From a virus, in IMG/VR virus record IMGVR_UViG_3300027357_000001: 40,298 bases of DNA. One strand, 5' to 3'. Position 1 is the stretch's first letter, and the number at the start of each line of letters is the position of its first letter. The notes under the pieces were generated by a model. The model was not told the DNA's origin and made no database searches. It saw only the letters and a program-made list of their open reading frames with translations. Below are positions 1 to 40,298 of the stretch, piece by piece. The position numbers and the translations under genes were made by a program.

Positions 1-51
1 ACTGGCGCGAGAGACGGGACTCGAACCCGCGGCCTCCGCCGTGACAGGGCG
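1..51. repeat. Left att direct repeat (integrase-distal junction); displaced 3' fragment of tRNA-Asp
   Basis: Nucleotides 1-51 are identical to 40248-40298. The reverse complement of 3-51 is the anticodon-stem-to-CCA part of tRNA-Asp(GUC). The adjacent 50 nt contain no D-arm and no 5' acceptor strand (GCGAGAG), so this copy is a fragment. Confidence 0.85.
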
Positions 52-6442: not shown

Positions 6443-9400
6443 TCAGCGCGAAGAACGCCGCCGCTGAGCGTCGGTAGCGAGCAGACCTTGCCCGAGCATT
6501 CCCGCGCCCTTCGCAAACCGCGGATCGGCTACGCGCCGCGCCTGCGGCCCAAAGAATAGCTCAGTTGCATTCCGCGCCTGGTTGGCGTTCGCGATCCTGC
6601 CCAACCCCTTATCGATGCCGAGCGCGACGGCCGCACCAGGCAGGCCGGCGGTGTTGAAGCCGAGCAGCGGCAAGAGCGAGTGCCGCGCACCGTTGGCGAT
6701 CTTTGCCAACATCGGCGCCGTCCCCGACGGGTTCGTGGTCCCCTTGACCGGGATCATCTGTTTGTAGACCGACGCAAGCTGCTTCATGAGCGCGCGTTCC
6801 TGTTCGGTGTAGAGCACACCGGCAAGCTGCGAGCCCGAGCCGTTCAAGAACTCATGAAGCCGCTGCGAGAGCGCTTGCGCCTCATAGGGGATTTTCCCCT
6901 CGCCGGCGTTGGTCAGCTTCTCCCAGACGCCTTGACGGAGCGCAGTCCAACCTTCCGGAGAAAGCCGCTGTTTCAGCACCGATGCGATCAGCGGCGCATT
7001 CACACCATTGCCCTTGCCGCTCGCGCCCATCAGGTCGTTGACGATCTTGTTCGGCGAGGCCGGCGGCGCGCCATCGGCGCCGGCATAGCGTCGCAGCGTC
7101 GCCGCCACCACGCCGGGCTCATTCGGTTGCGGAAGAGTGCCGCGCAGTCGATCGGCATAGCGCGCGAGCTGTGCGCGCTCGCCCGCATCGAACACGACAT
7201 GGGCCAGCATCCGGCCCTTTGTGCCGTTGAGAAATTCGCCGATCCGCGCCGCCGCCTCTTCCGGCTCGCCGTCCGTCAGATGCGCGAAAAGCCCCTGCTT
7301 ATAGGTCGCGAACTCGTCCGAGTTTCGGCCGAAAATCCGCTCGATCCGTTGCGCGATTTGCACCGGCATTTGACCGCCAGGCGCTGAGCCCGAACCATAG
7401 GCCAGCTTTACGATTTCGTCCGGCGTAGCCCGAGTGTCGGAGAATTTCCCCAGAATTTTTTCAACCGCCGCGCCGACCGTATCGCCCGCGCCGCGCTTGG
7501 CGAATTTCTGCTTGTAATCGGCAAACGACGCCCGCGCCTCTTCCTGCATTCGCAGCACGGCGGGACCGTCACCAGAGAACTTGCCCTGTTCGACCATTTG
7601 CGCGACGCGCCGATCGAACTGGTCCATGATGTGTTCGAGCGCGTGAAGATCCGAGCCCGAACCGCCCGCCATCATCGCACGCCGCGCATCACCGTAGAGC
7701 GTCGAGAGCTGCTTTCGCACCTGTTCGACATCGCGCATGGTGAAGCTGGAGCCGGCCGACTGCGGCACCATCTGCCGATCGCCGGGGAAGTCCGAGACGC
7801 GCGGGATACCCGCAGCGTCCTCTTGTTCCAGTTGACGAAAGGCGCGCTCTACCGCGTCGTCGGCGGTCGCCCCCTCATCCGCCATCAGCTTGGCCGCTCG
7901 CTGCCTGACGTCGCCGCCAAGCTGGCCATAACCCGCGGCGTTCAAATCATCGTCAATGCCGCGCATGAGGGCGTCGAACTCATGCTGTTCGCGCTCCGAG
8001 CGCGCGGCGGCCTCTCGCTTGCCGATATGGCCCTCGAAACCTTCTGGAAAGCGCTTTTGGCCACGCATTTCCGCGTCAATTGCGTCCAGCAGATCATTGA
8101 CGGTCGACGTTCCGTTGTGGCTGCCCCGCAGATAACCGGCCTCTTCCGCTGCCTCGCGTGCGTAATCGAGCGGCCAGCCGCCTTGCCGAACCAGCTTCCG
8201 GCGGCCCAGGCCCTCGACGTTGACGGTATGTCCGTGGCCGCCGATCGCCTCCAACTCTGCATCGGGCCCCAAGCCGCCCTTTGACGCGATGAATTCAAGC
8301 AGGCTTTGCTCCTTTGGAGCCGCCGGCGCAGCGGCCGACTGCTTCTGCCGATCATACGCCGCCGCGACGTCATCACCGAACTTCGCGCGAATGTCTGCTA
8401 CGTTTCGCGCGTGCTCATCGACCGCAGAGGCAGGAGCGCCCGGCGCGGCCGGCTCACGCACGCCCGGCCCGACCGCGTTCAAATTGTCGTCAATGATTTC
8501 GAGACCGCGAAGCGCTTTCGGCGTGTTGGTCGGGTCGAGTGACACCGGATTGTCGCCAGCGCGTAGCCCAGCATCGACATCAGCACGGAAGCCTGCCGCA
8601 GAGCCCGGCGCGAATTCACCTGGAGCCGCGGCGACTGCTTCATATTTCCCGCGGTAGTCAGCCCGCGCCGCATTGCGGGCCGCCGCGAAGCGATCGGAGA
8701 GCATTTCCGCCGCGTCGACGGGCGCGGCCGCCCTGATTTGGCCGCCGCCGATCGCCCGGGCCATGTCGACCCGCTGTTGCGCGGGCGACATCTGTCCGGC
8801 ATGAACGCCAGCCTCCGAAGCTTGCCGCGCCTGTTCCTGCGCGATCAGTTCGGCCGCGATCTTTTCCGCCGCCTCGTTCGGCGGGGTTCGAGCAGCGGCG
8901 CCGGTCGGATCGAGCCCCGCGGCGATTTGATCGCTCGCCTGCCCTACGCGCTCGTCTTGCAGATCCTTGAACGCCTGCGCTCGCTCCTGTGCGGGGACAC
9001 CTCGACCACCGCGAAGCAAAATCTGCTCTTCGGCCGAGAGCGCCGGATTTTGTGTGATTTGCGATTGCGACAGCGGCACATCGACGCCGCCAACGTTCAC
9101 CACGTTTTGAGGGACCGCCGAGGGCGGACGCACACGATCCGCAACCGCAGCAACGGCTTTTCCGACCGCCTTCCCCACCGGACCCATCGCACCGCCGATG
9201 ATGCCGCCGGTCACGGCCGCCGGCCCGATATCCTCACCGCGCGTTACCGCATCCGCGCCAGAGAGAGCCGCGCCCGAGAGCGCTCCATTGCGGACCATTT
9301 CCCGCATGGTGCCGGTGACGCCGAAGGCTTTCGGTGCGAGCGCAACGGCCGGCGCTGTCGCCGCGATGCCGCCGGCGAGCTGCGCGGCCGTGTCGATGAC

Positions 9401-22600: not shown

Positions 22601-22694
22601 TCGAACGTAGCTCAGCGGGATAGAGCGCGGGTTACCCAGTGCAAGCTAAAGGCACTGAAACGCGAGGCCGCCGGTTCAAGTCCGGTCGTTCGAG
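22601..22694 (+). tRNA. tRNA-like gene with canonical acceptor, D and T arms but a non-canonical 43-nt central domain; isotype undetermined
   Basis: Acceptor TCGAACG/CGTTCGA (extendable to 9 bp). U8-A9. D arm GCTC-AGCGGGATA-GAGC. T arm GCCGG-TTCAAGT-CCGGT. Discriminator G, no encoded CCA. The central region 22627-22669 folds as a 6-bp hairpin CAGTGC/GCACTG with 9-nt loop AAGCTAAAG, instead of a 5-bp/7-nt anticodon arm. Confidence 0.55.
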
Positions 22695-25068: not shown

Positions 25069-25680
25069 TCATCGCATGCAATTCCCACACGCGAAGCCGA
25101 CATCGGCTGCCGCGATTGTTGGACCTTCAGCCGCAGCGTCGATCATGGCCCGCACGCCGGCGGCATCAGCGCCATATCGGCGAACCACGCCGATGAATTC
25201 CTCGACGTCATGACCGCGCATGCAGTAGGACGGCCCGGCGCTGGTGAATTTCGGCGCGCCGAAAGCATCCCGCTCCTGCGCGCAGTGCGACAGCTCATGC
25301 TCGACCAGGGCGCAAAACGTCGCGTCGTTCGCCTGGTCGGCATAGGGCGCATAGATCGTGATGACGAAATCCGGGATATCCCCGAACCATTCCGTCAATT
25401 GCTGTTCCTGCTTGCCCTTGGCCCATTTGTCCGAGCCGCCAGAGCCGCAGAGCTGGGCTTGGCCTACGATCGCGCGCCCATGCTTCCCATTCGGTACCGA
25501 CGTCCAAAGGAAGCCGATCCGAGCACCCTGCAAATGCGCATGCTCTGGGTTTTCGAGGGTCGCGCCCTCATCAATGAACGTCGCGAATGCCCAGCGCTCG
25601 AGATCCGGCGCAGCGATGAACGCCGGCCTCCCATCTGGGATCGTTTCGAGCAATTGCGCTGGAGGCCGCGGCCGCGTCAT
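25069..25680 (-). CDS. Putative phage metallopeptidase
   Basis: 203 aa with a zinc-binding motif HELSH inside ALVEHELSHC. The layout is typical of the phage metallopeptidase domain. Confidence 0.7.
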   Translation of the reverse strand: MTRPRPPAQLLETIPDGRPAFIAAPDLERWAFATFIDEGATLENPEHAHLQGARIGFLWTSVPNGKHGRAIVGQAQLCGSGGSDKWAKGKQEQQLTEWFGDIPDFVITIYAPYADQANDATFCALVEHELSHCAQERDAFGAPKFTSAGPSYCMRGHDVEEFIGVVRRYGADAAGVRAMIDAAAEGPTIAAADVGFACGNCMR

Positions 25681-26025: not shown

Positions 26026-26463
26026 CTATGCAGCACCGTTGGTGAATTGTCCGATCTCCCTCATGAGGGCGTCAGCCTCCCCGTCGACCGTTGTTGCGAG
26101 CTGGTCATGAGCGTCGGCGGCTTGCTCCATTTTGGTCAGAGCCGCGTCCATCTTCGCGCTTCCAGTTTCGACCTTCTGGCGGATCGCGCGGAGACGGGTG
26201 GAGAGTGAACCGCCAGCATAGCCGGCACCGGTGACGCTCATGGTTTCCTCTTTGGGTTGGGTGGTGACGAGTGCGACGGATGGAAGCCGCAGCGCGTTGC
26301 GAACTGCATCCTCAATGTCCTGGTCCGACGCGAGCGGCGCGACAGCAGCGATCATGCTGCCATTGGCCCAGGTGAGACATTGTCGGCCGGCCGAAAGCGT
26401 AAGAGCGAGAGTTTCGATACCAGGCACGTCAGCCATGCGGGCTTTGAGATCAGCGATCGACAT
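26026..26463 (-). CDS. Hypothetical protein (145 aa), first gene after a 71-nt intergenic region
   Basis: Clean ORF. No motif recognised. Confidence 0.6.
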   Translation of the reverse strand: MSIADLKARMADVPGIETLALTLSAGRQCLTWANGSMIAAVAPLASDQDIEDAVRNALRLPSVALVTTQPKEETMSVTGAGYAGGSLSTRLRAIRQKVETGSAKMDAALTKMEQAADAHDQLATTVDGEADALMREIGQFTNGAA

Positions 26464-26534
26464 TCCCTAGAAATCTCCCGGCTGCGTTAATGCGCCTAGC
26501 AAAAAGCAAATCGTTTTGCGAAATCGTTGGATAA

Positions 26535-27395
26535 CTAAGCCGCGGCGACGGTCACGCGCCGCCCGGCAATGTCCAATCCATGCTTCGCAAGCAGCTCAGC
26601 CGAGGCGCGACAGCCCGTCATGCCCGGCGCAGGCCCAGCCCACCGCGACCAGAAGCCGTTTTTCGCGTACATCCGAACCGCGCCCTCTAGCTGGGCTTCG
26701 ATACCGTCACCCGGCGCCGGTTCGGCGGCAGCGACCTCCGCATGATCCGACCACCGCTGTTGATTGAGCCACGTCGACGCCATGGGAATGAACCGGCTTC
26801 CGATGTTGCCGCGCGCCGCCTCATCGCTCGCGAGTTTCTTCGCCGCGTCGATCATGACTTGCGGATCGGTACCGGCCTTCACCAGCGCGTCAAACTTGGT
26901 TTCAGCAGGCTTGCGCGGATTGCCACCCTCCCGGCGAGGGTAAACCTGCCAGAATTCCTCAAACCTCGAGGGCTCGCGCGGCGGCCGGGCTTTGACCGGC
27001 CGAGAGTGTTTTTCTGTATCTGTATCTGTTTCTGTCTCTGGGGCCGTTTCCGAAACGTCAGATGAAACGTTTCGTTGCCGCTCCCTGAAACGCTGCACTC
27101 GCGACGTTGAGGTATCCGACTTGTACTGCCGCTTGTCCCAATTGTGCGGCTTGAACGTTCCATCCTCGAGCTTGTCGAACAGTTCGCGCGCCACCAGCTC
27201 TACCAGGAGCGCGGCGATCCGCTGCGGTTTCATCCGCAGATGGATTTCAAGATCGGCCATAGGCGGAAGCACGCCGCCATTGTTCGATGCTACACATAGC
27301 AGGAGCACCCAGCCGCGGAACGTCGCGTCAGACAGCCGCAGCGTCTTGGGATCGTTGATCACGTCCCCATACATCCGAAACCAAGGATTGCTCAC
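26535..27395 (-). CDS. Replication initiator / replisome-organiser-like protein
   Basis: GTG at 27395 (GGAAGGG upstream; GTGA overlap with the upstream stop). The N-terminus SNPWFRMYGDVINDPKTLRLSDATFRGWVLLLCVAS is typical of phage replisome-organiser/DnaD-like N-domains. An acidic linker (ETAPETETDTDTEK) follows, then a C-terminal domain. Confidence 0.65.
   Translation of the reverse strand: MSNPWFRMYGDVINDPKTLRLSDATFRGWVLLLCVASNNGGVLPPMADLEIHLRMKPQRIAALLVELVARELFDKLEDGTFKPHNWDKRQYKSDTSTSRVQRFRERQRNVSSDVSETAPETETDTDTEKHSRPVKARPPREPSRFEEFWQVYPRREGGNPRKPAETKFDALVKAGTDPQVMIDAAKKLASDEAARGNIGSRFIPMASTWLNQQRWSDHAEVAAAEPAPGDGIEAQLEGAVRMYAKNGFWSRWAGPAPGMTGCRASAELLAKHGLDIAGRRVTVAAA
27013..27092. promoter_or_regulatory. 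Candidate replication origin (iteron cluster) inside the replication gene linker
   Basis: A TCTGTATCTGTATCTGTTTCTGTCTCTG tract (27013-27040) is followed by CGTTTC-C-GAAACG (27045-27057), GAAACGTTTC (27064-27073) and TGAAACG (27086-27092). Confidence 0.35.
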
Positions 27396-27589
27396 CCGGC
27401 CCACCCTTCCCTTGTCATGTTGAACAGCGTGCAGCCGAGGCTTTCCCCAACCTTTACCGGCACACATGCAATTCGGTTTCGAGCCGCCATCTGGTCGGCA
27501 AGCTCGCGCGTGGCCCAAACCGTGCCGCACGCGCCCATAAGCGGCCGATAGACGTTGACCCAGACGGTTGCATGCGCGTCAGCGGCCAT
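27392..27589 (-). CDS. Hypothetical small protein (65 aa)
   Basis: Its stop overlaps the GTG of the replication gene (GTGA). Confidence 0.5.
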   Translation of the reverse strand: MAADAHATVWVNVYRPLMGACGTVWATRELADQMAARNRIACVPVKVGESLGCTLFNMTREGWAG

Positions 27590-27773
27590 TCGCGCCCCCG
27601 TTCAGCCGATTGCGGAATTTGTGCCCGCGCTTCGCGCCCGCTTGCCTAATCCACCGGCCAATAGTCTGCCGAGGCCGCTTAAATTGCTCTTCAAGGTGTT
27701 TCAGCAGCGTACCACCGGCGTAGAGCCCGACGCATTCGGCGCGCTGCACGTCCGTCGAGTGTCGCGCACCCAT
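27579..27773 (-). CDS. Small helix-turn-helix DNA-binding protein
   Basis: ATG at 27773 shares one base with the DpdA-like stop (TGATG); alternative ATG at 27785. HTH-like segment: LEEQFKRPRQTIGRWIRQAG. Confidence 0.55.
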   Translation of the reverse strand: MGARHSTDVQRAECVGLYAGGTLLKHLEEQFKRPRQTIGRWIRQAGAKRGHKFRNRLNGGANGR

Positions 27774-28522
27774 CAGAACCCCCATGCTAGCTGGACAGGC
27801 CGTTGAACGGCCCGGAGAGACTGTGAAGCAATCGCCGCGGCGAACCGCGCTGCCTCGCGCCAGTCGTTCGCGTCGCGCCCTTGCTTGCGAGCTGCGAACG
27901 ACCAGGCCATGCTATCGGCGCTGTGAAGGAGCGCGATGACTTCAGGAGAACTTAAGGCGGTGGTTTTCAGCCCGAAGCCATGCAGCAGAAGATCCGGGCG
28001 AGCCGCCTTGATCGTGGCGAGTATCCGAGCGATGACGCCGACGTCAGTGTTGCGCTTGCAGACCGAGCCAACACCCACATAGGCGCCAGGTCCAAGCCTC
28101 GATCCGTACATTTCCAGGTGCCGCAGATAGTCCGCGACTGTGTACCCCTGCAAAACGGGCATGATGTACACCCGGCCCCCGACCGCCTTAACCAAGGCGT
28201 CATACCGCTCGATTGTCCGTCCTTGATGTTCCTCGACGGAGAGCCCCGTTTTCGCCAGGATGAACGGTTCGCACATGTAATCTTGCGCGACCGCGGCAAC
28301 CAACGCCGGATCATCAGCCCATCGCAGGATCAGCGCAGCGTATTCCTCGACGCTGTGGCGATACTCACCATGCTGCGAAATCTCTGTGAATGCGCCGCTA
28401 TCCATGATCCAGGCGCCGGCGCCGATCGCCTTCTTTCGCTTACGAACCCGGTTGACGCTGATAAACGCCCGCTCAAAGCGGTGCGCATCACTCGGCTGAT
28501 GCAGTCCCACGTAAAACATCAC
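27773..28522 (-). CDS. dpdA: DpdA-like DNA-guanine transglycosylase (TGT superfamily; 7-deazaguanine DNA modification)
   Basis: 249 aa. Ordered motifs: FYVGLHQP, MDSGAF, QDYMCEP, EEHQGRTIERY, PVLQGY, VGVGSVCKR, LHGFGLK, SADSMAWS. These match the conserved blocks I recall for phage/bacterial DpdA. No TGT-type zinc cysteine cluster is present. Confidence 0.65.
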   Translation of the reverse strand: MMFYVGLHQPSDAHRFERAFISVNRVRKRKKAIGAGAWIMDSGAFTEISQHGEYRHSVEEYAALILRWADDPALVAAVAQDYMCEPFILAKTGLSVEEHQGRTIERYDALVKAVGGRVYIMPVLQGYTVADYLRHLEMYGSRLGPGAYVGVGSVCKRNTDVGVIARILATIKAARPDLLLHGFGLKTTALSSPEVIALLHSADSMAWSFAARKQGRDANDWREAARFAAAIASQSLRAVQRPVQLAWGF

Positions 28523-28707
28523 CGCGTGCCTGCAATCCTCTTGTCGCGGATCGCCGCGAGACGGTTTGCAACAATGCTTTCCGGAAGCGCCAGGTGCTTT
28601 GCAATCGTCACCGTGTCGTGCTTCTCACGCCACAGCGCGGCAATCGCCAGATCGTGCACCTTGCGCGCGCCGACCTCGACCGGCGCCAATTCACCGAACA
28701 CGCTCAT
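28519..28707 (-). CDS. Hypothetical small protein (62 aa) between methyltransferase and DpdA-like genes
   Basis: ATGA overlaps at both ends (28704-28707 and 28519-28522). Possible HTH: TVTIAKHLALPESIVANRL. Confidence 0.55.
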   Translation of the reverse strand: MSVFGELAPVEVGARKVHDLAIAALWREKHDTVTIAKHLALPESIVANRLAAIRDKRIAGTR

Positions 28708-29885
28708 TCTGCCGCCTCCAGTTGAGGGATTGAAATTTGGGAAACCATCTCGATCCGGCGGCCGAGCCAGCGCATTGCGTTCACCGCCATGGAGTTGCCC
28801 AGGGCCTTGTAGCGAGGCCCGTCAGCAGCCATCCGCCCGCGATATGGGATCAGCGTGTAGTCGTCGGGGAAGGCTTGGAGCCGTTCGCATTCTCGAGGAA
28901 TGAGACGACGGACGCGCCACGAAGCGACAAAGCTGCGCGAAGAACCACCCGACGCGGCTCTGATATTCGCTGTGTGGTGCGGACCTTCGAACTGCGCACC
29001 GCCATCGCGGCCGCGCATGTCGAAAGCGACATGCTCAATGATTGGATTAATCAAGCCGACTTGGTTGCCAGCCACCGCGCCTTTCGAACGCTCCCAATAG
29101 GCGGTTAGCGTGTCGGCAACGGGTTGCGCACGCGCGACCGCGATCACGGTCTCGTAATCTTGCCGGCCCATGCCGCCAGCATTGAGGCAGTGCGCGACAT
29201 CGCCTGTGGATGGGATCAGTCCGCCGTCGCAATCGACGTCTGTCCCGAGCCCGCCCCCGCCAGAAGGGCGCGCGCTAATTGAGCCGGCAACTCCTTCCCC
29301 CGCTTCTCGGCGCGGCGCAGAATTCCACGACAGGCTTTCGGGCTCAAAAAGTACCGCTGCGGCACGTCGCCAGTCTCCAAGACATCCGACAACGAACACA
29401 CGCCGTCGTCGCTGAGGGACAGCCCGTCCAAACCCGTCCACTCGCACGAACTGAGCGTCAATGATGCGGTAGGCCCACCCATACCCGAGTTCTGCCAGCG
29501 CCCCGAGGAAGGCGCCAAAATCCCGTCCTTTGTTGGATGACAGGACACCGGGCACGTTTTCCCAAACGAGCCATTCGGGACGGTATCGATCAGCGATGCC
29601 AAGGTATGTAAGAGCGAGGTTCCCGCGTGGGTCAGCCAGGCCTTTGCGCAGTCCTGCGACCGAAAAGCTTTGGCATGGTGTCCCGCCAACGAGAACATTG
29701 ATAGCTGCAAGAGGCCACTCCCGATATTTCGTCATGTCGCCGAGGTTCGGCACGTCCGGATAGTGATGCGCCAGCACGGCGCTTGGAAACTTGTCGATCT
29801 CAGCGAATGCGAACGGCCTCCAGCCGAGCGGATGCCACGCGACCGTGGCGGCTTCGATGCCAGAGCACACGGACAGATAATTCAT
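28704..29885 (-). CDS. dcm: DNA (cytosine-5)-methyltransferase
   Basis: ATG at 29885 within track ORF 28704-29969. Motif I LSVCSGIEA; motif IV GGTPCQSFS; motif VI ENVPG; motif VIII QRRRRVFVVG; motif X ALGNSMAV. Confidence 0.9.
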   Translation of the reverse strand: MNYLSVCSGIEAATVAWHPLGWRPFAFAEIDKFPSAVLAHHYPDVPNLGDMTKYREWPLAAINVLVGGTPCQSFSVAGLRKGLADPRGNLALTYLGIADRYRPEWLVWENVPGVLSSNKGRDFGAFLGALAELGYGWAYRIIDAQFVRVDGFGRAVPQRRRRVFVVGCLGDWRRAAAVLFEPESLSWNSAPRREAGEGVAGSISARPSGGGGLGTDVDCDGGLIPSTGDVAHCLNAGGMGRQDYETVIAVARAQPVADTLTAYWERSKGAVAGNQVGLINPIIEHVAFDMRGRDGGAQFEGPHHTANIRAASGGSSRSFVASWRVRRLIPRECERLQAFPDDYTLIPYRGRMAADGPRYKALGNSMAVNAMRWLGRRIEMVSQISIPQLEAAE

Positions 29886-30151
29886 TCGTCCACGCGCTCC
29901 CGCAGCTCGAAAAAGCCCTTGGCTTCCGGATGGATTTGGAGAAACCACCGCGACAGCGGCGCCGTCCAATGGTCGTTGCAGCGAAAAGCGCGATTGCCGC
30001 GCTCGATCCGTTCGTGCCAGCGGATCCGATGCAGGATCGCGTCGGCCGAATATCGCTTGTAACCGAGCGCGTGGACCTCGAGCGCCAGGCGCTCGAACTG
30101 CTGGCAGACGTCGAGCGGCACCCCTGCTGGATATGCCGGCACCGGCGGCAC
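29882..30151 (-). CDS. Conserved hypothetical protein (89 aa)
   Basis: GTG start. Its stop overlaps the dcm ATG (ATGA). The segment YSADAILHRIRWHERIERGNRAFRCNDHWTAPLSRWF looks like a family I have seen next to phage/plasmid methyltransferases. Function unknown. Confidence 0.55.
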   Translation of the reverse strand: MPPVPAYPAGVPLDVCQQFERLALEVHALGYKRYSADAILHRIRWHERIERGNRAFRCNDHWTAPLSRWFLQIHPEAKGFFELRERVDE

Positions 30152-30180
30152 GCGATCGAATAGCGGCAGACCGTCCAGGA

Positions 30181-30723
30181 TCAGCCCTCCAGCTCGTCGC
30201 GAAGGGACTTCACCATGTCGACGGTTTCACGCTTGATGCCCTCCGGATGCTCCGGATCGAGGCCACATTCCCGTTTGATCTTGTTCACGGCGTGCAAGAC
30301 CGTGGTGTGATCCTTGCCGCCGAAATGGCGGCCGAGCACCGGCAGGCTATGCGTGGTGAACTCTTTGGCGAGGTACATCGCGATTTGCCGGATATGCACC
30401 AGCGCCGCGGTGCGGCGATCGGAAAGAAATTCCGCGATGGTCCAGCCCATGCGATCGCAGACAGCAATCTGAATATCCCGAACCGTGATCGGCTTAACGA
30501 GAGTGGAGCTGTTGATCGAGAACCATGGCTCTTTCATCGACGGCGGCGCGATCGTTGGAACGGCAGGCTTCTCGGCCGGCGCAGGCTTAACCAACATCAC
30601 CGACGGAGCCGATCTGCGCTGTTGCAGCTCTGCGGCTCGCGCCTCGATCGAGGCATGGAAGGCGGCGCGTCGCGCGCGTGCCTTCAATTCCGTTTCTGTT
30701 GGCCGATACGCGGGGGCGATCAT
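30181..30723 (-). CDS. DnaA domain-IV-like DNA-binding protein
   Basis: 180 aa. The C-terminus ITVRDIQIAVCDRMGWTIAEFLSDRRTAALVHIRQIAMYLAKEFTTHSLPVLGRHFGGKDHTTVLHAVNKIK matches the DnaA C-terminal (DnaA-box-binding) domain signature. No AAA+ domain. Confidence 0.8.
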   Translation of the reverse strand: MIAPAYRPTETELKARARRAAFHASIEARAAELQQRRSAPSVMLVKPAPAEKPAVPTIAPPSMKEPWFSINSSTLVKPITVRDIQIAVCDRMGWTIAEFLSDRRTAALVHIRQIAMYLAKEFTTHSLPVLGRHFGGKDHTTVLHAVNKIKRECGLDPEHPEGIKRETVDMVKSLRDELEG

Positions 30724-31062
30724 TTACCCCCCATTCTTGCGAACCAGAGCCGAAGCCTCATCCAGTAGATCCGATGCAGCGCCGCACGCCGCTTCGGTGA
30801 GTGCAATTTCATGCCTAAGTTTCCTCAATTGACGTTGGCATTCGGCTTCATAGGCCGCCTTCAAACGCATGTACGCGGTGACGCCGATGTCCTTGAGCGA
30901 TGCCCGGCGATATCGAAGCCGCCACATCACCCCGTAGTCGACGCCGTAATCACGTTCGATTGAACGCATCGCGTTTTCGGTGTCTCCTGCACCCCGAGAA
31001 CGCATTTTCGTAAGGTCCTTCGACCACTTAACCGCTTCATCCAGGTACGCAGACCGCGGCAT
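30724..31062 (-). CDS. Hypothetical protein (112 aa)
   Basis: ATG at 31062 lies 9 nt downstream of GGAGG. Its stop abuts the next ATG. Confidence 0.6.
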   Translation of the reverse strand: MPRSAYLDEAVKWSKDLTKMRSRGAGDTENAMRSIERDYGVDYGVMWRLRYRRASLKDIGVTAYMRLKAAYEAECQRQLRKLRHEIALTEAACGAASDLLDEASALVRKNGG

Positions 31063-31195
31063 TTGCTTTCGCCTCCAAAACAATTTGCAACAGTGCAAAA
31101 GGCGTCATGATTGAACTTCCGGCATGACGAACCCGGACAACGAAGAAACCGAACCCTTCCCGTTCCTGCCGCTCGCGACGTTTGCCGCGAGAGTG

Positions 31196-31366
31196 CTAAC
31201 CGGCAGCACCGAGCAAAATCAGAACCGCGCTCCCGACCGAGCCGCCGCCAAGTACGAAGAAGAACAAGCCGAACAGCACCGCGCCCACGTCGATCAGGGC
31301 TTGCGCCAGATAGCCGCGTTTGAACGGCGCGCTCGCGGGCTGAAACGTTGGTGAAACGTTTCTCAT
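31196..31366 (-). CDS. Small membrane protein, 56 aa (below ORF-track cutoff)
   Basis: Hand translation: MRNVSPTFQPASAPFKRGYLAQALIDVGAVLFGLFFFVLGGGSVGSAVLILLGAAG. Its ATG overlaps the cro-like stop (ATGA 31363-31366). This replaces track ORF 31124-31354(+). Confidence 0.6.
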   Translation of the reverse strand: MRNVSPTFQPASAPFKRGYLAQALIDVGAVLFGLFFFVLGGGSVGSAVLILLGAAG

Positions 31367-31611
31367 GCCGCGTGCTCTTTCACCGGATCGGCGGGCACAT
31401 GCGACGGATCGCGCCAGATGTCCGGACGAATGTCCGAAGCTGGGACAGCTCCGTTCAAAAACCGATGGATCGCCAAAGCCATCTCAGCCGTGGCGTGCCC
31501 TTTCCGCTTCGCTTTGTTGATCGCGACTTGCGAAAAGCCTGTTCCTTCGCCAAGCTTGGCCTCAGAACCAGCCAACTGAATTGCTTTTTCGATAACCGGA
31601 CGTGCGCTCAT
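31363..31611 (-). CDS. Cro/YdaS-like HTH regulator, first gene of the minus-strand early operon
   Basis: 82 aa. HTH segment AIQLAGSEAKLGEGTGFSQVAINKAKRKG, then IRPDIW. It is divergent from the CI-like repressor. Confidence 0.7.
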   Translation of the reverse strand: MSARPVIEKAIQLAGSEAKLGEGTGFSQVAINKAKRKGHATAEMALAIHRFLNGAVPASDIRPDIWRDPSHVPADPVKEHAA

Positions 31612-31652: not shown

Positions 31653-32378
31653 ATGTTTTGGAGAAACGTGGTCGAGCTTTGGCTAAAAGCCTTCGCCATG
31701 AAGGCAGGGGGACTGATCCGCGACAAACGCCGAGAGCTTGGCTGGTCTCAAAAGGACCTAGCCGAGCGCGTCGGCGTGTCGCAGGTAGCGATTATGAAGA
31801 TCGAGCGCGGGGAGACTGTGAAGTCGAAACACTTTCCGAAGATCGCCCAGCTCTTGGGGCTAGATCTCGCCCTGCTCGACCCGACACTAGTCAAAGGTCA
31901 TGTGCACACCGTAACTACCCGGGGTAGTGCACCACCCAACCGGGCGCTACAGGTCATATCTAATGAACAAATAAAAGGCAGGTATGACCTACCCGTGTAC
32001 AGCACCGCTCAAGGAGGGACAGGCGCCTTAGTCCTGTCAAACCAGCCGTTCCGGCATATCGCTCGCCCGCTCAATCTCGATGGCATCCAAGATGCCTTCG
32101 GGGTGCTGATCGTCGGCAACTCCATGGCGAAGGAGTATCGGGAGGGCGATATTGCTTATGTCGATCCCCACCTACCTCCGCGTGTTGGCGACGCCTGTCT
32201 TTTCCAATCTGAGAACCACGGAACTGTCGAAGCCGTCATCAAGTATCTCGAGAAGCCGGCGGAAAGCTCCCCCGATCTCTGGCACGTCAGCCAGTCCAAT
32301 CCAGAGAAGAAGTTCACTTTGAAAAAGGCCGAGTGGCAGAAGTGCTACGTCCTGGTCGGTAAGCAATCCGGCCGGTAA
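31653..32378 (+). CDS. CI-like repressor (XRE HTH + S24 LexA-type autopeptidase)
   Basis: N-terminal HTH: LIRDKRRELGWSQKDLAERVGVSQVAIMKIERGE. C-terminal S24 motifs: VGNSM (Ser) and IKYL (Lys). Start uncertain (ATG 31653, GTG 31668 after GGAG, or ATG 31698). Confidence 0.85.
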   Translation: MFWRNVVELWLKAFAMKAGGLIRDKRRELGWSQKDLAERVGVSQVAIMKIERGETVKSKHFPKIAQLLGLDLALLDPTLVKGHVHTVTTRGSAPPNRALQVISNEQIKGRYDLPVYSTAQGGTGALVLSNQPFRHIARPLNLDGIQDAFGVLIVGNSMAKEYREGDIAYVDPHLPPRVGDACLFQSENHGTVEAVIKYLEKPAESSPDLWHVSQSNPEKKFTLKKAEWQKCYVLVGKQSGR

Positions 32379-33216: not shown

Positions 33217-33327
33217 ATGATTGATTTCCTTCACCGTCACGGTTGCGACGCGACCGATATCCGCGACCTCGCTGTCATCGCCGCTTTCGTCAGCATGGTT
33301 TTCGTTTGGTGCGCGGTGCTGGCATGA
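33217..33327 (+). CDS. Possible 36-aa membrane peptide (below ORF-track cutoff)
   Basis: Hand translation: [36 protein letters not shown]. Its stop overlaps the next ATG (ATGA 33324-33327). Confidence 0.4.
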
Positions 33328-33632
33328 GCAACAGCAACGCCGCATCCCGCGTCACCTACGAAAAGCGGACAATGGCCTATTACGACCGCTTGCCGAAATC
33401 GGTTCGATACGCAGTTGCAAACGCCAGGTTCGACTGGACGCTGAGCAAGTTGCTGCGCGCATTCGAGCGCGGCCAAGCCAGCGCCGCCGACTTGGTCGGC
33501 GCCGTCGAGCGGATGGACAAGATCGAGAGCGCCAAGACGCGCTTCCGCGCATGGGGCGGCGACTATCCGATTTTCGACGGCGAGATTTCTCACATCCCGC
33601 TCACCCGCAAGCCCCGCCGTTCCCGTCGTTAG
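33324..33632 (+). CDS. Hypothetical protein (102 aa)
   Basis: ATG at 33324 within track ORF 33243-33632. Translation begins [38 protein letters not shown]. Confidence 0.6.
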
Positions 33633-33661
33633 TCCCCTCAAACCACAACAGAGAAACCGAA

Positions 33662-34390
33662 ATGCTCGATACGATCACCAAGCAGCTTTTGAAGTTCGAT
33701 GTCCGTAACCGCTTCACTGGAGCGGTGCAATTCACGGCAGAAATCGACTGCCGCGACGATGCTTCGACCAGCATTAAGCTTGGCCTCGCGATCAAATGGG
33801 CCATCAAGAGCGGCGCGAACCTGAGCGGCGCGTACCTGAGCGGCGCGGACCTGAGCGGCGCGTACCTGAGCGGCGCGAACCTGAGCGGCGCGTACCTGAG
33901 CGGCGCGGACCTGAGCGGCGCGGACCTGAGCGGCGCGTACCTGAGCGGCGCGTACCTGAGCGGCGCGAACCTGAGCGGCGCGTACCTGAGCGGCGCGGAC
34001 CTGAGCGGCGCGGACCTGAGCGGCGCGTACCTGAGCGGCGCGTACCTGAGCGGCGCGAACCTGAGCGGCGCGTACCTGAGCGGCGCGGACCTGAGCGGCG
34101 CGTACCTGAGCGGCGCGTACCTGAGCGGCGCGTACCTGAGCGGCGCGTACCTGGGAGCCGATCAGTGGATCATCCAGGGAGCGACCCGCAGCGACGGTTA
34201 CGCCTTCTTCCTCCAGAAGCTCAAGGCAGACAAAGAGCCGATGGTGAAAGCCGGCTGCCGCTACTTCACTCTGCGCGAAGCGCAGATCCATTGGGAAAAG
34301 ACCCGCGCCGGGACGGCGCTCCTTACCGAAACCGAGACTATCGTCCGTTGCATGGTCGATCTCGCCCGCGCGCGGAAGCTGATGGATTGA
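33662..34390 (+). CDS. Pentapeptide-repeat protein (242 aa)
   Basis: ATG at 33662. Contains 23 consecutive A(N/D/Y)LSG pentapeptides, flanked by non-repetitive N-terminal (49 aa) and C-terminal (about 78 aa) domains. Confidence 0.85.
33809..34153 (+). repeat. In-frame tandem repeat, 23 x 15 bp (AGCGGCGCGNACCTG)
   Basis: The units are identical except for the first base of one codon (AAC/GAC/TAC). Unit order is N Y D Y N Y D D Y Y N Y D D Y Y N Y D Y Y Y Y, which implies a 90-bp higher-order repeat. Confidence 0.95.
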
Positions 34391-38877: not shown

Positions 38878-40248
38878 ATGGGGCGCGATAGCATCCGATA
38901 TTTCGTTTATTCGAAAGGCCGCTGGAAATGGCAGCCAACCAAGCCCATGCGCGCCCATGGCTTCGTCACCGTGAAGATGGGTCGAGGCGGTCCCGGGCTG
39001 GACAGCAAGGGCTATCCGGTCGCGAGCACCGAGGACAAAATGCGGGCGGTGGAGTTGAACGCGGCATGGGACGCCGCGCGCCTTGGCCTTCCTGCCCCAC
39101 AGAAGCCCGCAGCGACGGCCGTCAAATATCCGGCCGGGAGCGTTGGCGACGGCTATCAGCGCGCCATGGCGCTCCGGAAGGCCGGCAGACTGGCAAAAGG
39201 CATCGTCTGGACCAACGAGCAGGAAAAGCGCGATAGCTGGCCGCGCGCGTGGAAGTGGCTGGAGCCGAAATTCGCGGACTGCGATCCGCGCACGATCACG
39301 CCGGAGCATTTTCTTCGCCTTGATCCAGTGACCGGCAAACCGGCCGGGCTCGTTGTCGAGATCGAAAACAAGGTTTCCGTCACCGAGCGCTTCATGGTGA
39401 TCAAGGTGTGGCGGGCGCTGTGGAAGAAGATGGCAGGCATGGGGTATTGCGACGAGAAGGCAGACCCCGCCAAGACCTTCCCGAACACGCCGCCGAAGCC
39501 GCGCGATCAGGTCTGGTACCGGAAGGAGACATTGAAGCTCGTACAGATCGCGTGGCGGAATGGCTACTACGGCCTCTCCGCGCTCATGGCCGTTGCGTGG
39601 GACAGCCAGCTCTCGCCGATCGACACGCGAAGCCTCAACCTCGAGAAAGCACGCCTCGATAGCGTCGGCGTCTATTTCGCGCTGGACCGCGCCAAGACCG
39701 GCAGAGCGGCAGCGGCGACGCTTTCGGCCTGGTCACTGGCGATCCTGCGCGCCTATCTCAAGAAGCAATTCAACGGCGCGAAGCTGCTCGACACAACGCC
39801 CCTATTCTGGACCCGCGGCGGCCGGCCGGTGTCCCGAGATGGAACGACGGGACGGTGGGGCGGCGACCACGGCGGCGGCAAGCATGTCCCGTCGCGCCCA
39901 TACACGAAGAGTAGCGCGAACCAGGACTTTGCGGAGATACGGAAGCTGGCCTATGGGCTCAAGGAACGGCGCCAACTCCAGGACATGCGCCGATCGGGCG
40001 CCGTTGAGGGCGACGTCGGCGGGGCCACGGTCGAGGACCAAGCCAACAAGATGGCGAACACGGTCAATCGCAATGAGAAGCTGCGGGAGACCTATAACCC
40101 GGTGAACGTCGTTAGCGCCCGCCGCTTCGACCAAGCGCGCCTCATCGGGGCCAAGCTGCTGGAAGAACAAAAAGGGGCAAAAAGTATTTCAGCGACGCCC
40201 CAAGAAATACTCTTGGGAACCGAAACTTTCGCTAAGTCATTGAAATGA
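38878..40248 (+). CDS. int: Tyrosine-type site-specific integrase
   Basis: 456 aa. Catalytic-domain landmarks: DRAKTGRAAAATLS, QDMRRSGAVE and the C-terminal RETYNP (candidate Tyr). Its stop codon TGA (40246-40248) overlaps the first base of the att repeat. Confidence 0.85.
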   Translation: MGRDSIRYFVYSKGRWKWQPTKPMRAHGFVTVKMGRGGPGLDSKGYPVASTEDKMRAVELNAAWDAARLGLPAPQKPAATAVKYPAGSVGDGYQRAMALRKAGRLAKGIVWTNEQEKRDSWPRAWKWLEPKFADCDPRTITPEHFLRLDPVTGKPAGLVVEIENKVSVTERFMVIKVWRALWKKMAGMGYCDEKADPAKTFPNTPPKPRDQVWYRKETLKLVQIAWRNGYYGLSALMAVAWDSQLSPIDTRSLNLEKARLDSVGVYFALDRAKTGRAAAATLSAWSLAILRAYLKKQFNGAKLLDTTPLFWTRGGRPVSRDGTTGRWGGDHGGGKHVPSRPYTKSSANQDFAEIRKLAYGLKERRQLQDMRRSGAVEGDVGGATVEDQANKMANTVNRNEKLRETYNPVNVVSARRFDQARLIGAKLLEEQKGAKSISATPQEILLGTETFAKSLK

Positions 40249-40298
40249 CTGGCGCGAGAGACGGGACTCGAACCCGCGGCCTCCGCCGTGACAGGGCG
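40248..40298. repeat. Right att direct repeat (integrase-proximal junction)
   Basis: Identical to 1-51. It is truncated by the window edge, so the true repeat could be longer. Confidence 0.85.
40250..40298 (-). tRNA. 3' 49 nt of tRNA-Asp(GUC); the gene continues beyond the window
   Basis: The reverse complement reads CGCC-CTGTCAC-GGCGG-AGGCC-GCGGG-TTCGAGT-CCCGT-CTCTCGC-G-CCA. This gives an anticodon loop CU-GUC-AC, a 5-nt variable loop, a T arm, a 7-nt acceptor strand, discriminator G and encoded CCA. It is closely parallel to E. coli tRNA-Asp. Confidence 0.75.

Follow-up and report, generated by a model that had tools for sequence, protein, structure and literature searches.

The question raised by this locus is whether a DpdA-like gene and a C5-cytosine DNA methyltransferase gene (dcm), which lie one small gene apart in a viral genome, form a dedicated DNA-modification module. 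The sequence, referred to here as the window, is the whole 40,298-nucleotide (nt) stretch of IMG/VR virus record IMGVR_UViG_3300027357_000001, and the genes in question occupy positions 27392–30151. The original prediction, made from the sequence, was that the DpdA-like enzyme, the methylase, and four small interleaved open reading frames (ORFs; here orf89, orf62, orf64, and orf65) could together constitute an uncharacterised anti-restriction or epigenetic module. Our analysis partly supported this reading. The two enzymes were identified correctly, and the window lacks deazaguanine biosynthesis genes as proposed; the dedicated module was not found. Instead, the window is the prophage of a temperate phage of the DpdA-only kind that also encodes an orphan methylase, a gene content known from phages since 2019. 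The dpdA of this prophage is a self-contained cassette with no fixed partner, which tends to land in an early region holding DNA-modifying genes.

Identity of the DpdA and Dcm proteins

The 27392–30151 stretch contains six tightly packed minus-strand genes, and an independent gene caller recovered all six on the contig from which the window derives, a bacterial one of 534 kb assembled from a metagenome. Neighboring genes overlap by 1–11 nt, which indicates tight coupling, and the prediction of four small, tightly packed ORFs around DpdA and Dcm was thus borne out by the gene calls. Two of the small ORFs had been described as helix-turn-helix-like. This held to some degree for orf64, which matched HTH_28 at E 4.3e-4, below the Pfam cut-off; no match of this kind was found for a second one. 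Scans of orf62 and orf65 against Pfam, NCBIfam, and PHROG gave no match.

Assignment of the 248-amino-acid (aa) product of the DpdA ORF to the DpdA/tRNA-guanine transglycosylase (TGT) superfamily is supported by its profile match, predicted fold, and catalytic motifs. A profile search and a structure prediction had been proposed as checks, and both pointed to this superfamily. The ORF matched the Pfam DpdA family PF23859 at E 2.9e-45 (154.9 bits, cut-off 27; positions 5–224 of the 291 in the profile) and phrog_1279 at E 3.4e-68. With 44 homologues as input, AlphaFold2 gave a confident model (pLDDT 88.8, pTM 0.87) of an alpha/beta barrel. When this model was compared with the PDB by Foldseek, the top 50 matches were exclusively TGTs or the DpdA structure 7ui4 (probability 1.00, query-normalised TM-score 0.53–0.63), with TGT 7nq4 and DpdA 7ui4 as the leading matches. 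The best viral structural match was a mycobacteriophage protein named "queuine tRNA-ribosyltransferase" (TM-score 0.78).

All of the sequence blocks by which the enzyme had originally been recognised (MDSGAF, QDYMCEP, EEHQGRTIERY, PVLQGY, VGVGSVCKR, LHGFGLK, and SADSMAWS) are present in the translation. Conservation was examined in the same 44 homologues, which are 66–79% identical to the protein; residue numbers refer to the 248-aa form. Asp39 (in MDSGAF), Asp79 (in QDYMCEP), and Asp201 (in SADSMAW) were invariant, as were Q123-G124, H179-x-F181-G182, and the GSVCKRN loop. In the AlphaFold2 model each of the three aspartates lies at or just past the C-terminal end of a predicted beta-strand, and they are predicted to be active-site residues. 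In a profile alignment, DSGAF, HGFG, and (A/C)DS(M/S)xW matched the same motifs in the DpdA of phage 9g.

Superfamily membership was obtained solely from the Pfam model, Foldseek, and the alignment to 9g DpdA with hhalign. Searches of the PDB sequences with phmmer (using the protein) or hmmsearch (using the 44-sequence profile) found no TGT or DpdA, and hhalign against Escherichia coli Tgt gave a probability of 0.1%. The structural zinc site CXCX2CX22H (C.C..C motif) is absent from the 248-aa protein, which has two cysteines, and so is the large Ins8 (beta8/alpha8) insertion; both features are described for bacterial DpdA and TGT (PMC10164549). The missing zinc site was considered as an argument against DpdA membership and rejected, since the validated DpdA1 enzymes of 9g and Rosebush also lack the motif. 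The 9g DpdA (L105:3007–3960) was itself not detected by PF23859 at E <= 0.01, whereas the singleton clade described below scores high. A PF23859 match should accordingly not be taken as proof of preQ0 insertion.

The closest known counterparts of the protein fall into several groups. The validated DpdA1 enzymes (Enterobacteria phage 9g, Escherichia phage CAjan, and Mycobacterium phage Rosebush) share the TGT fold and the DSGAF, HGFG, and xDSxxW motifs. They differ in being longer (317–385 aa) and in being encoded together with FolE, QueD, QueE, and QueC in phages in which 25–32% of the guanine is replaced; none of these genes is present in the window. The Salmonella Montevideo DpdA (7UI4; PMC10164549) shares the fold (Foldseek E 6.3e-6, 17% identity) and the catalytic aspartate logic, but is a 413-aa protein with insertions Ins1/2/3/8 and the CXCX2CX22H zinc site, requires the ParB-like ATPase DpdB, and sits in a dpdA–K defence island; the window has neither the partner nor the island.

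The protein belongs to the clade of gp20 of Mycobacterium phage Orion, to which it is 41% identical across 225 aa (E 1e-40). Both proteins are about 250 aa in length, belong to the same Pfam family, come from phages without preQ0 genes, and share the motifs DSG(A/G)F, QD(Y/W)MCEP, VLQGY, VGVGSVC(K/R)R, HGFG, and ADSMAWS. The two loci differ in that Orion infects Mycobacterium smegmatis and carries dpdA among its structural genes, whereas the window comes from a temperate phage of a Bradyrhizobium-like alphaproteobacterium, which probably makes preQ0, and has dpdA in the early replication operon. Identity rises to 61% with the DpdA proteins of Sinorhizobium phage phiLM21 (gp25) and Rhizobium phage RHph_TM3_3_3 (EVB37_081). 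This is a very large family, with >7,000 clusters at 90% identity (E <= 1e-5) and 1,876 clusters at 50% identity (E <= 0.001), mostly of 240–290 aa, and NCBI names its members "DUF7221 family queuine tRNA-ribosyltransferase-like protein". In the classification of Hutinet et al. (2019; PMC6884629), the singleton group comprised 76 phages with DpdA and without preQ0 or G+ genes. These DpdA-only phages were the largest group in that study, and a host or exogenous source of precursor was proposed for them. The window, which has DpdA and no homologue of G+ or preQ0 biosynthesis genes, is of this type (their group 3), to which it adds a Bradyrhizobium-type temperate phage. For annotation, "singleton (Orion-type) phage dpdA" describes the gene best, and its partners should not be taken to include dcm or the small ORFs beside it.

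The neighboring methylase is a canonical and complete Dcm, as had been predicted. It matched DNA_methylase PF00145 at E 2.5e-44 (152.4 bits, cut-off 22), TIGR00675 dcm at E 7.7e-43 (147.4 bits, cut-off 100.65), and phrog_116 at E 1.3e-85. Motifs IV (PCQ), VI (ENV), VIII (QRR, within the predicted QRRRR), and X (GNS) are all present in its translation, which is 393 aa long from an ATG or 421 aa from the TTG of the mechanical ORF. It is flanked by the 62–89-aa ORFs, DpdA, and a DnaA-C-like protein. Among the flanking early-operon genes scanned (26026–31098), no match to a nuclease domain was found. Because no restriction endonuclease match lies beside the methylase, we regard Dcm as an orphan. 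Its closest homologue in an isolated phage is that of Pseudanabaena phage Pan4, where the gene adjoins another methylase and a helicase and has no DpdA nearby.

Precursor genes and neighbors of dpdA

Neighborhoods were surveyed in 21 genomic and 80 viral DpdA loci with up to 10 kb of flanking sequence, plus phiLM21 and RHph_TM3_3_3, giving 103 related loci, or 104 with the window. The co-occurrence survey of the small ORFs with DpdA that had been suggested gave a clear result. With tblastn, homologues of orf62, orf64, and orf65 were found near dpdA in none of the 103 related loci, including loci with a 72–77% identical DpdA, and orf89 had one weak match, 4.2 kb from dpdA. The other homologues of orf89 come from phages of Roseobacter and Polaribacter in which DpdA is absent.

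All-against-all clustering of the ORFs within 4 kb of dpdA showed that, excluding dpdA itself and shadow ORFs, no family occurred in more than 10 of the 104 loci. Two families reached that number, a C5-methylase family and a replication protein. A conserved DpdA–Dcm pairing is contradicted by this count, and a dedicated dual module of DpdA, Dcm, and small partners is contradicted both by it and by the lack of recurrence of the small ORFs. When six methylase queries of different classes were used, 15 of the 104 loci had a methylase no more than 1 kb from dpdA; the number rose to 19 at a distance of up to 3 kb and to 31 at up to 10 kb. These methylases belong to several different classes. A DpdB/ParB-like partner was not found in the window or in the 103 related loci with Rosebush gp1 as the query, and no such Pfam domain was present among the neighbors.

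A second contig (L002) has the same six-gene arrangement, an identical DpdA, and the same gene order throughout. It is probably the same phage and was not counted as independent evidence. phiLM21 and RHph_TM3_3_3 are both temperate alphaproteobacterial phages in which dpdA lies in the early operon near a DNA methyltransferase and replication or DnaA-like genes, and no preQ0 genes are annotated in the stretches inspected. The neighboring methylases there are annotated as DNA or adenine methylases, in contrast to the window, and orf62, orf64, orf65, and orf89 are not shared. In RHph_TM3_3_3 an "attachment site attL" annotated by the depositor (L107 8156–8170) lies inside the dpdA homologue EVB37_081; if it is correct, integration would split dpdA, and the gene would be whole in the excised genome only.

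Some relatives of the window DpdA are longer forms of the protein. Two are fusions in which a singleton-type DpdA domain is followed by a C-terminal methylase: P0124 (550 aa) carries N6_N4_Mtase (E 2e-46), and P0133 (559 aa) carries a D12-class methylase (E 1e-8). Natural fusions of this kind reflect a real functional kinship, if a loose one, between DpdA and methylases, and they point to DNA rather than tRNA as the substrate. The long forms P0054 and P0179 and the N-terminally extended P0188 had no Pfam match besides DpdA, and the C-terminal extensions of the first two and the N-terminal extension of the third had no match in the surveyed loci. On L003, a gene of the Acb2/Tad1-hairpin type (anti-CBASS/anti-Thoeris sponge family; 8091–8471) lies two genes downstream of a 392-aa long-form DpdA, which hints that dpdA is among counter-defence genes there.

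The genes for precursor synthesis were sought with FolE, QueD, and QueE, as well as (Gat-)QueC, of phages 9g and Rosebush as queries. The best tblastn match in the window had an E of 0.16; as a positive control, the two query sets detected one another at E 3e-5 to 1e-30. Neither tblastn nor searches of the large ORFs against Pfam and PHROG revealed a gene of the preQ0 pathway anywhere in the prophage. In the 103 related loci, with flanks of up to 10 kb, these tblastn queries gave no match but one to QueC, >3 kb from dpdA. No preQ1 riboswitch was found in the window by Rfam at the gathering threshold. The predicted absence of queC-, queD-, queE-, and folE-like genes from the 40 kb was thus confirmed and holds for the complete phage, so that any deazaguanine precursor must be supplied by the host. 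The closest named relatives of the portal protein are in Bradyrhizobium prophages (87% identity); those in Rhodopseudomonas, Afipia, and Tardiphaga come next. Because of these relatives the host very probably lies within that group, and we take it to be, very probably, a Bradyrhizobium-like bacterium. QueC is annotated in Bradyrhizobium japonicum (PMC9069715), and the host of this phage probably makes preQ0.

Explanations for the locus

The most likely explanation is that dcm and dpdA are two independent, early-expressed DNA-marking genes, DpdA using preQ0 or preQ1 from the host. We hold, with moderate confidence, that the six-gene stretch is a DNA-modification slot of the early operon, in which two independent single-gene cassettes are accompanied by four lineage-specific small ORFs and DpdA exchanges guanine for a host deazaguanine. 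Expression in the early operon is suggested by the location of dpdA between the DnaA-C-like and replication-initiator genes, by the overlaps, and by the promoter scan: a simple consensus scan found no sigma-70-like promoter inside the six-gene stretch and no excess of terminator-like hairpins over chance, so that dcm and dpdA appear to be ordinary early-operon members. The same scan offered nothing to suggest that the genes form a separate "moron" transcription unit, and that reading was rejected.

The proposed sequence of events is as follows. Inactivation of the repressor would allow transcription of the early operon, and Dcm and DpdA would be made together with the replication genes. The orphan Dcm would methylate cytosine at C5 in its own target motif. 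DpdA, a minimal TGT-fold TIM barrel of the Orion-gp20/PF23859 clade, would flip out a guanine at a sequence-specific site in double-stranded phage DNA. By analogy with the TGT/DpdA mechanism (PMC10164549), on which this chemistry is modelled, Asp201 would act as the nucleophile to give a covalent Asp201–deoxyribose intermediate, with Asp39 as the general acid/base and Asp79 reading the base. The intermediate would be resolved with preQ0, or possibly preQ1, from the queuosine pathway of the host. Instead of guanine being replaced in bulk, the outcome would be a mark that is sparse and specific to a motif, and such marks on progeny DNA would hinder restriction.

There are precedents for a precursor that comes from the host. 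The 9g DpdA inserts preQ0 into DNA (PMC6884629), and plasmid DNA from E. coli expressing 9g dpdA alone contained dPreQ0 (PMC6884629). The DpdA-only phages 7-11 and MED16 have low levels of dADG in their DNA (PMC6884629, PMC8306585): in Salmonella phage 7-11, a singleton phage unrelated to Orion, about 0.02% of G is present as dADG (PMC6884629), and in Pantoea phage vB_PagS_MED16, which carries dpdA alone plus an adenine methylase, dADG accounts for ~0.13% of G and m6A for ~0.27% of A (PMC8306585). Two chemistries with a host-derived precursor were thus already documented in MED16, with a different DpdA cluster and methylase class. Because DpdA-only phages have been published (PMC6884629) and MED16 carries both marks (PMC8306585), phages of this class cannot be called uncharacterised. 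Like the window, MED16 and 7-11 have dpdA without precursor genes. They differ in being lytic phages of gammaproteobacteria, with a DpdA of another singleton cluster that was absent from the tblastn matches of the window DpdA, and the MED16 methylase modifies adenine at N6 rather than cytosine at C5.

Several observations weigh against the use of host preQ0 by DpdA. DNA modification has been demonstrated for no member of the Orion-type clade, and none of the five 7-deazaguanine nucleosides assayed was detected in Orion DNA (PMC6884629); this negative result could be explained by the host of Orion, which lacks the queuosine pathway (PMC6884629). The clade occurs with an intact active site in ~400 mycobacteriophages, and prophage copies are present in the actinomycetes Lentzea, Nonomuraea, Actinoplanes, and Kribbellaceae. 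An active site that is kept intact in phages of actinomycete hosts is hard to reconcile with a strict dependence on host preQ0. Similarity to the validated DpdA1 enzymes is also marginal, with an hhalign probability of 47% for 9g DpdA and pairwise E values of 0.1–0.5, and the loop that aligns with the pocket for the 7-substituent reads GVGSVCKRN in the window protein and GGLVG in 9g and Rosebush.

Part of this evidence would also fit an alternative explanation, namely that the Orion-type clade, including the window protein, has diverged in function, and either swaps guanine for some base that is neither preQ0 nor preQ1 or works without a deazaguanine precursor, as a DNA glycosylase or another enzyme of TGT fold. 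The retention of catalytic motifs in mycobacteriophages whose host has no queuosine genes, the actinomycete prophage copies, and the distinctive, invariant GSVCKRN loop all fit it, and Hutinet et al. (2019) had raised the possibility, stating that more work is needed on whether singleton DpdAs have diverged functionally (PMC6884629). The protein, however, keeps the full guanine-recognition and nucleophile triad of the base-exchanging TGTs, other singleton DpdAs (7-11, MED16) yield deazaguanine marks, and the conserved neighbors suggest no alternative base or partner gene. We therefore consider functional divergence possible but doubtful. A narrower proposal is that the clade (PF23859/DUF7221), whose phages infect some hosts that have queuosine genes and others that do not, is not a preQ0 insertase, and installs or removes a different base at guanine sites in DNA; this seems unlikely to us. 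If it were true, the prophage, which also has Dcm, would bear a DNA mark that has yet to be described.

The wider interest of the locus lies in this point, that is, in the substrate of a very large clade whose active site is intact even where the hosts make no deazaguanine. Because its host is uncultured, the window illustrates the question without making it newly testable. phiLM21 and RHph_TM3_3_3, which have queuosine-proficient, cultivable hosts, would be good systems in which to establish whether the clade uses host preQ0 or something else.

The preferred reading, two independent marking genes, also has to be set against the possibility that DpdA, Dcm, and the four small ORFs are one co-evolved anti-restriction or epigenetic module, with the small proteins as specificity or regulatory partners. 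The tight packing with overlapping stop and start codons, the six-gene arrangement on L002, the DpdA–methylase fusions elsewhere in the family, and the 15 loci with some methylase within 1 kb would be expected of such a module. Against it stand the absence of orf62, orf64, and orf65 from all other DpdA loci, even those with the most similar DpdA, the orf89 relatives in phages without DpdA, the restriction of every neighbor family to <=10 of the 104 loci, the mixture of methylase classes, the activity of 9g DpdA by itself in E. coli (PMC6884629), and the probable identity of L002 with the phage studied here. The neighborhood survey largely refuted this explanation, and we judge it very improbable.

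The least probable explanation, which we likewise judge very improbable, is that the enzyme is a phage tRNA-guanine transglycosylase altering host or phage tRNA: its best structural matches are TGTs, many database relatives are named "queuine tRNA-ribosyltransferase", and the prophage lies in a tRNA-Asp(GUC) gene, the class of tRNA that host TGT modifies with queuosine, but the protein lacks the zinc subdomain and Ins8 that hold the anticodon stem in TGTs (it has no CxCxxC and two cysteines; PMC10164549), every phage homologue that has been tested acts on DNA, fusions to DNA methylases occur in the family, and tRNA genes are common attachment (att) sites. For the last reason a functional connection between the integration site and TGT chemistry was also rejected; the site is probably coincidental.

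Layout of the prophage

Coordinates of the six genes and of the features that define the prophage are given in Table 1. A repeat search and an exact pattern match showed that the two ends of the window are 51-nt direct repeats with 100% identity, which means that the window corresponds to exactly one whole prophage. This 40-kb prophage is complete and lambdoid in layout. The repeat corresponds to the 3' portion of a tRNA gene (Rfam tRNA match at 40253–40298, model positions 27–71), which was read as Asp-GUC from its anticodon loop.

Table 1. Positions of the modification genes, their operon neighbors, and the prophage boundaries in the window
Feature	Position	Strand	Basis or remark
attL	1..51	none	direct repeat identical to 40248–40298; prophage boundary
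orf65	27392..27589	-	no detectable homologue; lineage-specific
orf64, 68 aa from upstream ATG	27579..27773	-	weak helix-turn-helix; lineage-specific
DpdA, singleton, Orion-type, 248 aa	27773..28519	-	PF23859, phrog_1279, fold, motifs
orf62	28519..28707	-	between Dcm and DpdA; lineage-specific
Dcm, orphan C5-cytosine DNA methyltransferase, 393 aa	28704..29885	-	PF00145, TIGR00675 dcm, phrog_116
orf89	29882..30151	-	phrog_13625 E 9.5e-11, function unknown; overlaps Dcm start by 4 nt
Replication initiation/DnaD-like protein, 279 aa	26535..27374	-	phrog_270 E 1.9e-24 and related replication PHROGs; gene call; directly downstream of modification genes
DnaA domain-IV-only protein, 180 aa	30181..30723	-	PF08299 Bac_DnaA_C E 6.8e-25; upstream gene, same early operon
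Cro/YdaS-like first gene of early operon	31363..31611	-	PF15943 on sister contig L002; divergent from repressor gene
CI-type repressor (HTH_3 + Peptidase_S24)	31653..32378	+	phrog_4 E 2.8e-22; Pfam families
Probable integrase, 456-aa ORF	38878..40248	+	abuts attR at tRNA att site; no Pfam match
attR	40248..40298	-	3' part of tRNA gene, anticodon loop CUGUCAC; identical to 1–51

The leftward early operon encodes, in order, an unknown protein, the DnaA domain-IV protein, orf89, Dcm, orf62, DpdA, orf64, orf65, and the replication initiator. Beyond the initiator are a phage metallopeptidase gene and then the terminase, portal, capsid, and tail genes. The other arm of the prophage carries ERF and YqaJ recombination genes and a gene for a pentapeptide-repeat protein. 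The 456-aa ORF beside attR, which had no family match in the Pfam scan, is probably the integrase by its position and, if so, may be a divergent recombinase.

Four further features were observed. The DnaA-like protein encoded directly upstream of the modification genes is essentially DnaA domain IV, the helix-turn-helix that binds the DnaA box, and the early operons of phiLM21 and RHph_TM3_3_3 hold genes similar to it. The protein encoded at 25069–25680 (minus strand) is labelled "transposase" by PHROG 513, a label that looks like a misnomer in view of its Pfam PhageMetallopep match and HExxH motif. The pentapeptide-repeat protein in the lysogeny/recombination arm (33221–34390, plus strand; Pfam E 4e-46), which has ~25 tandem 15-nt units at 33718–34250, may be a DNA-mimic or anti-defence candidate. 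Rfam, which at the gathering threshold gave two tRNA matches and nothing else in the window, called the second of these at 22601–22694 (plus strand; 42.7 bits, E 6.5e-6), antisense in the portal–terminase intergenic region; ARAGORN does not detect it. Its acceptor, D, and T arms are normal, with 33 nt in place of 13 model positions of the anticodon arm, and it may represent either a tRNA-like element or a tRNA that is interrupted or degenerate.

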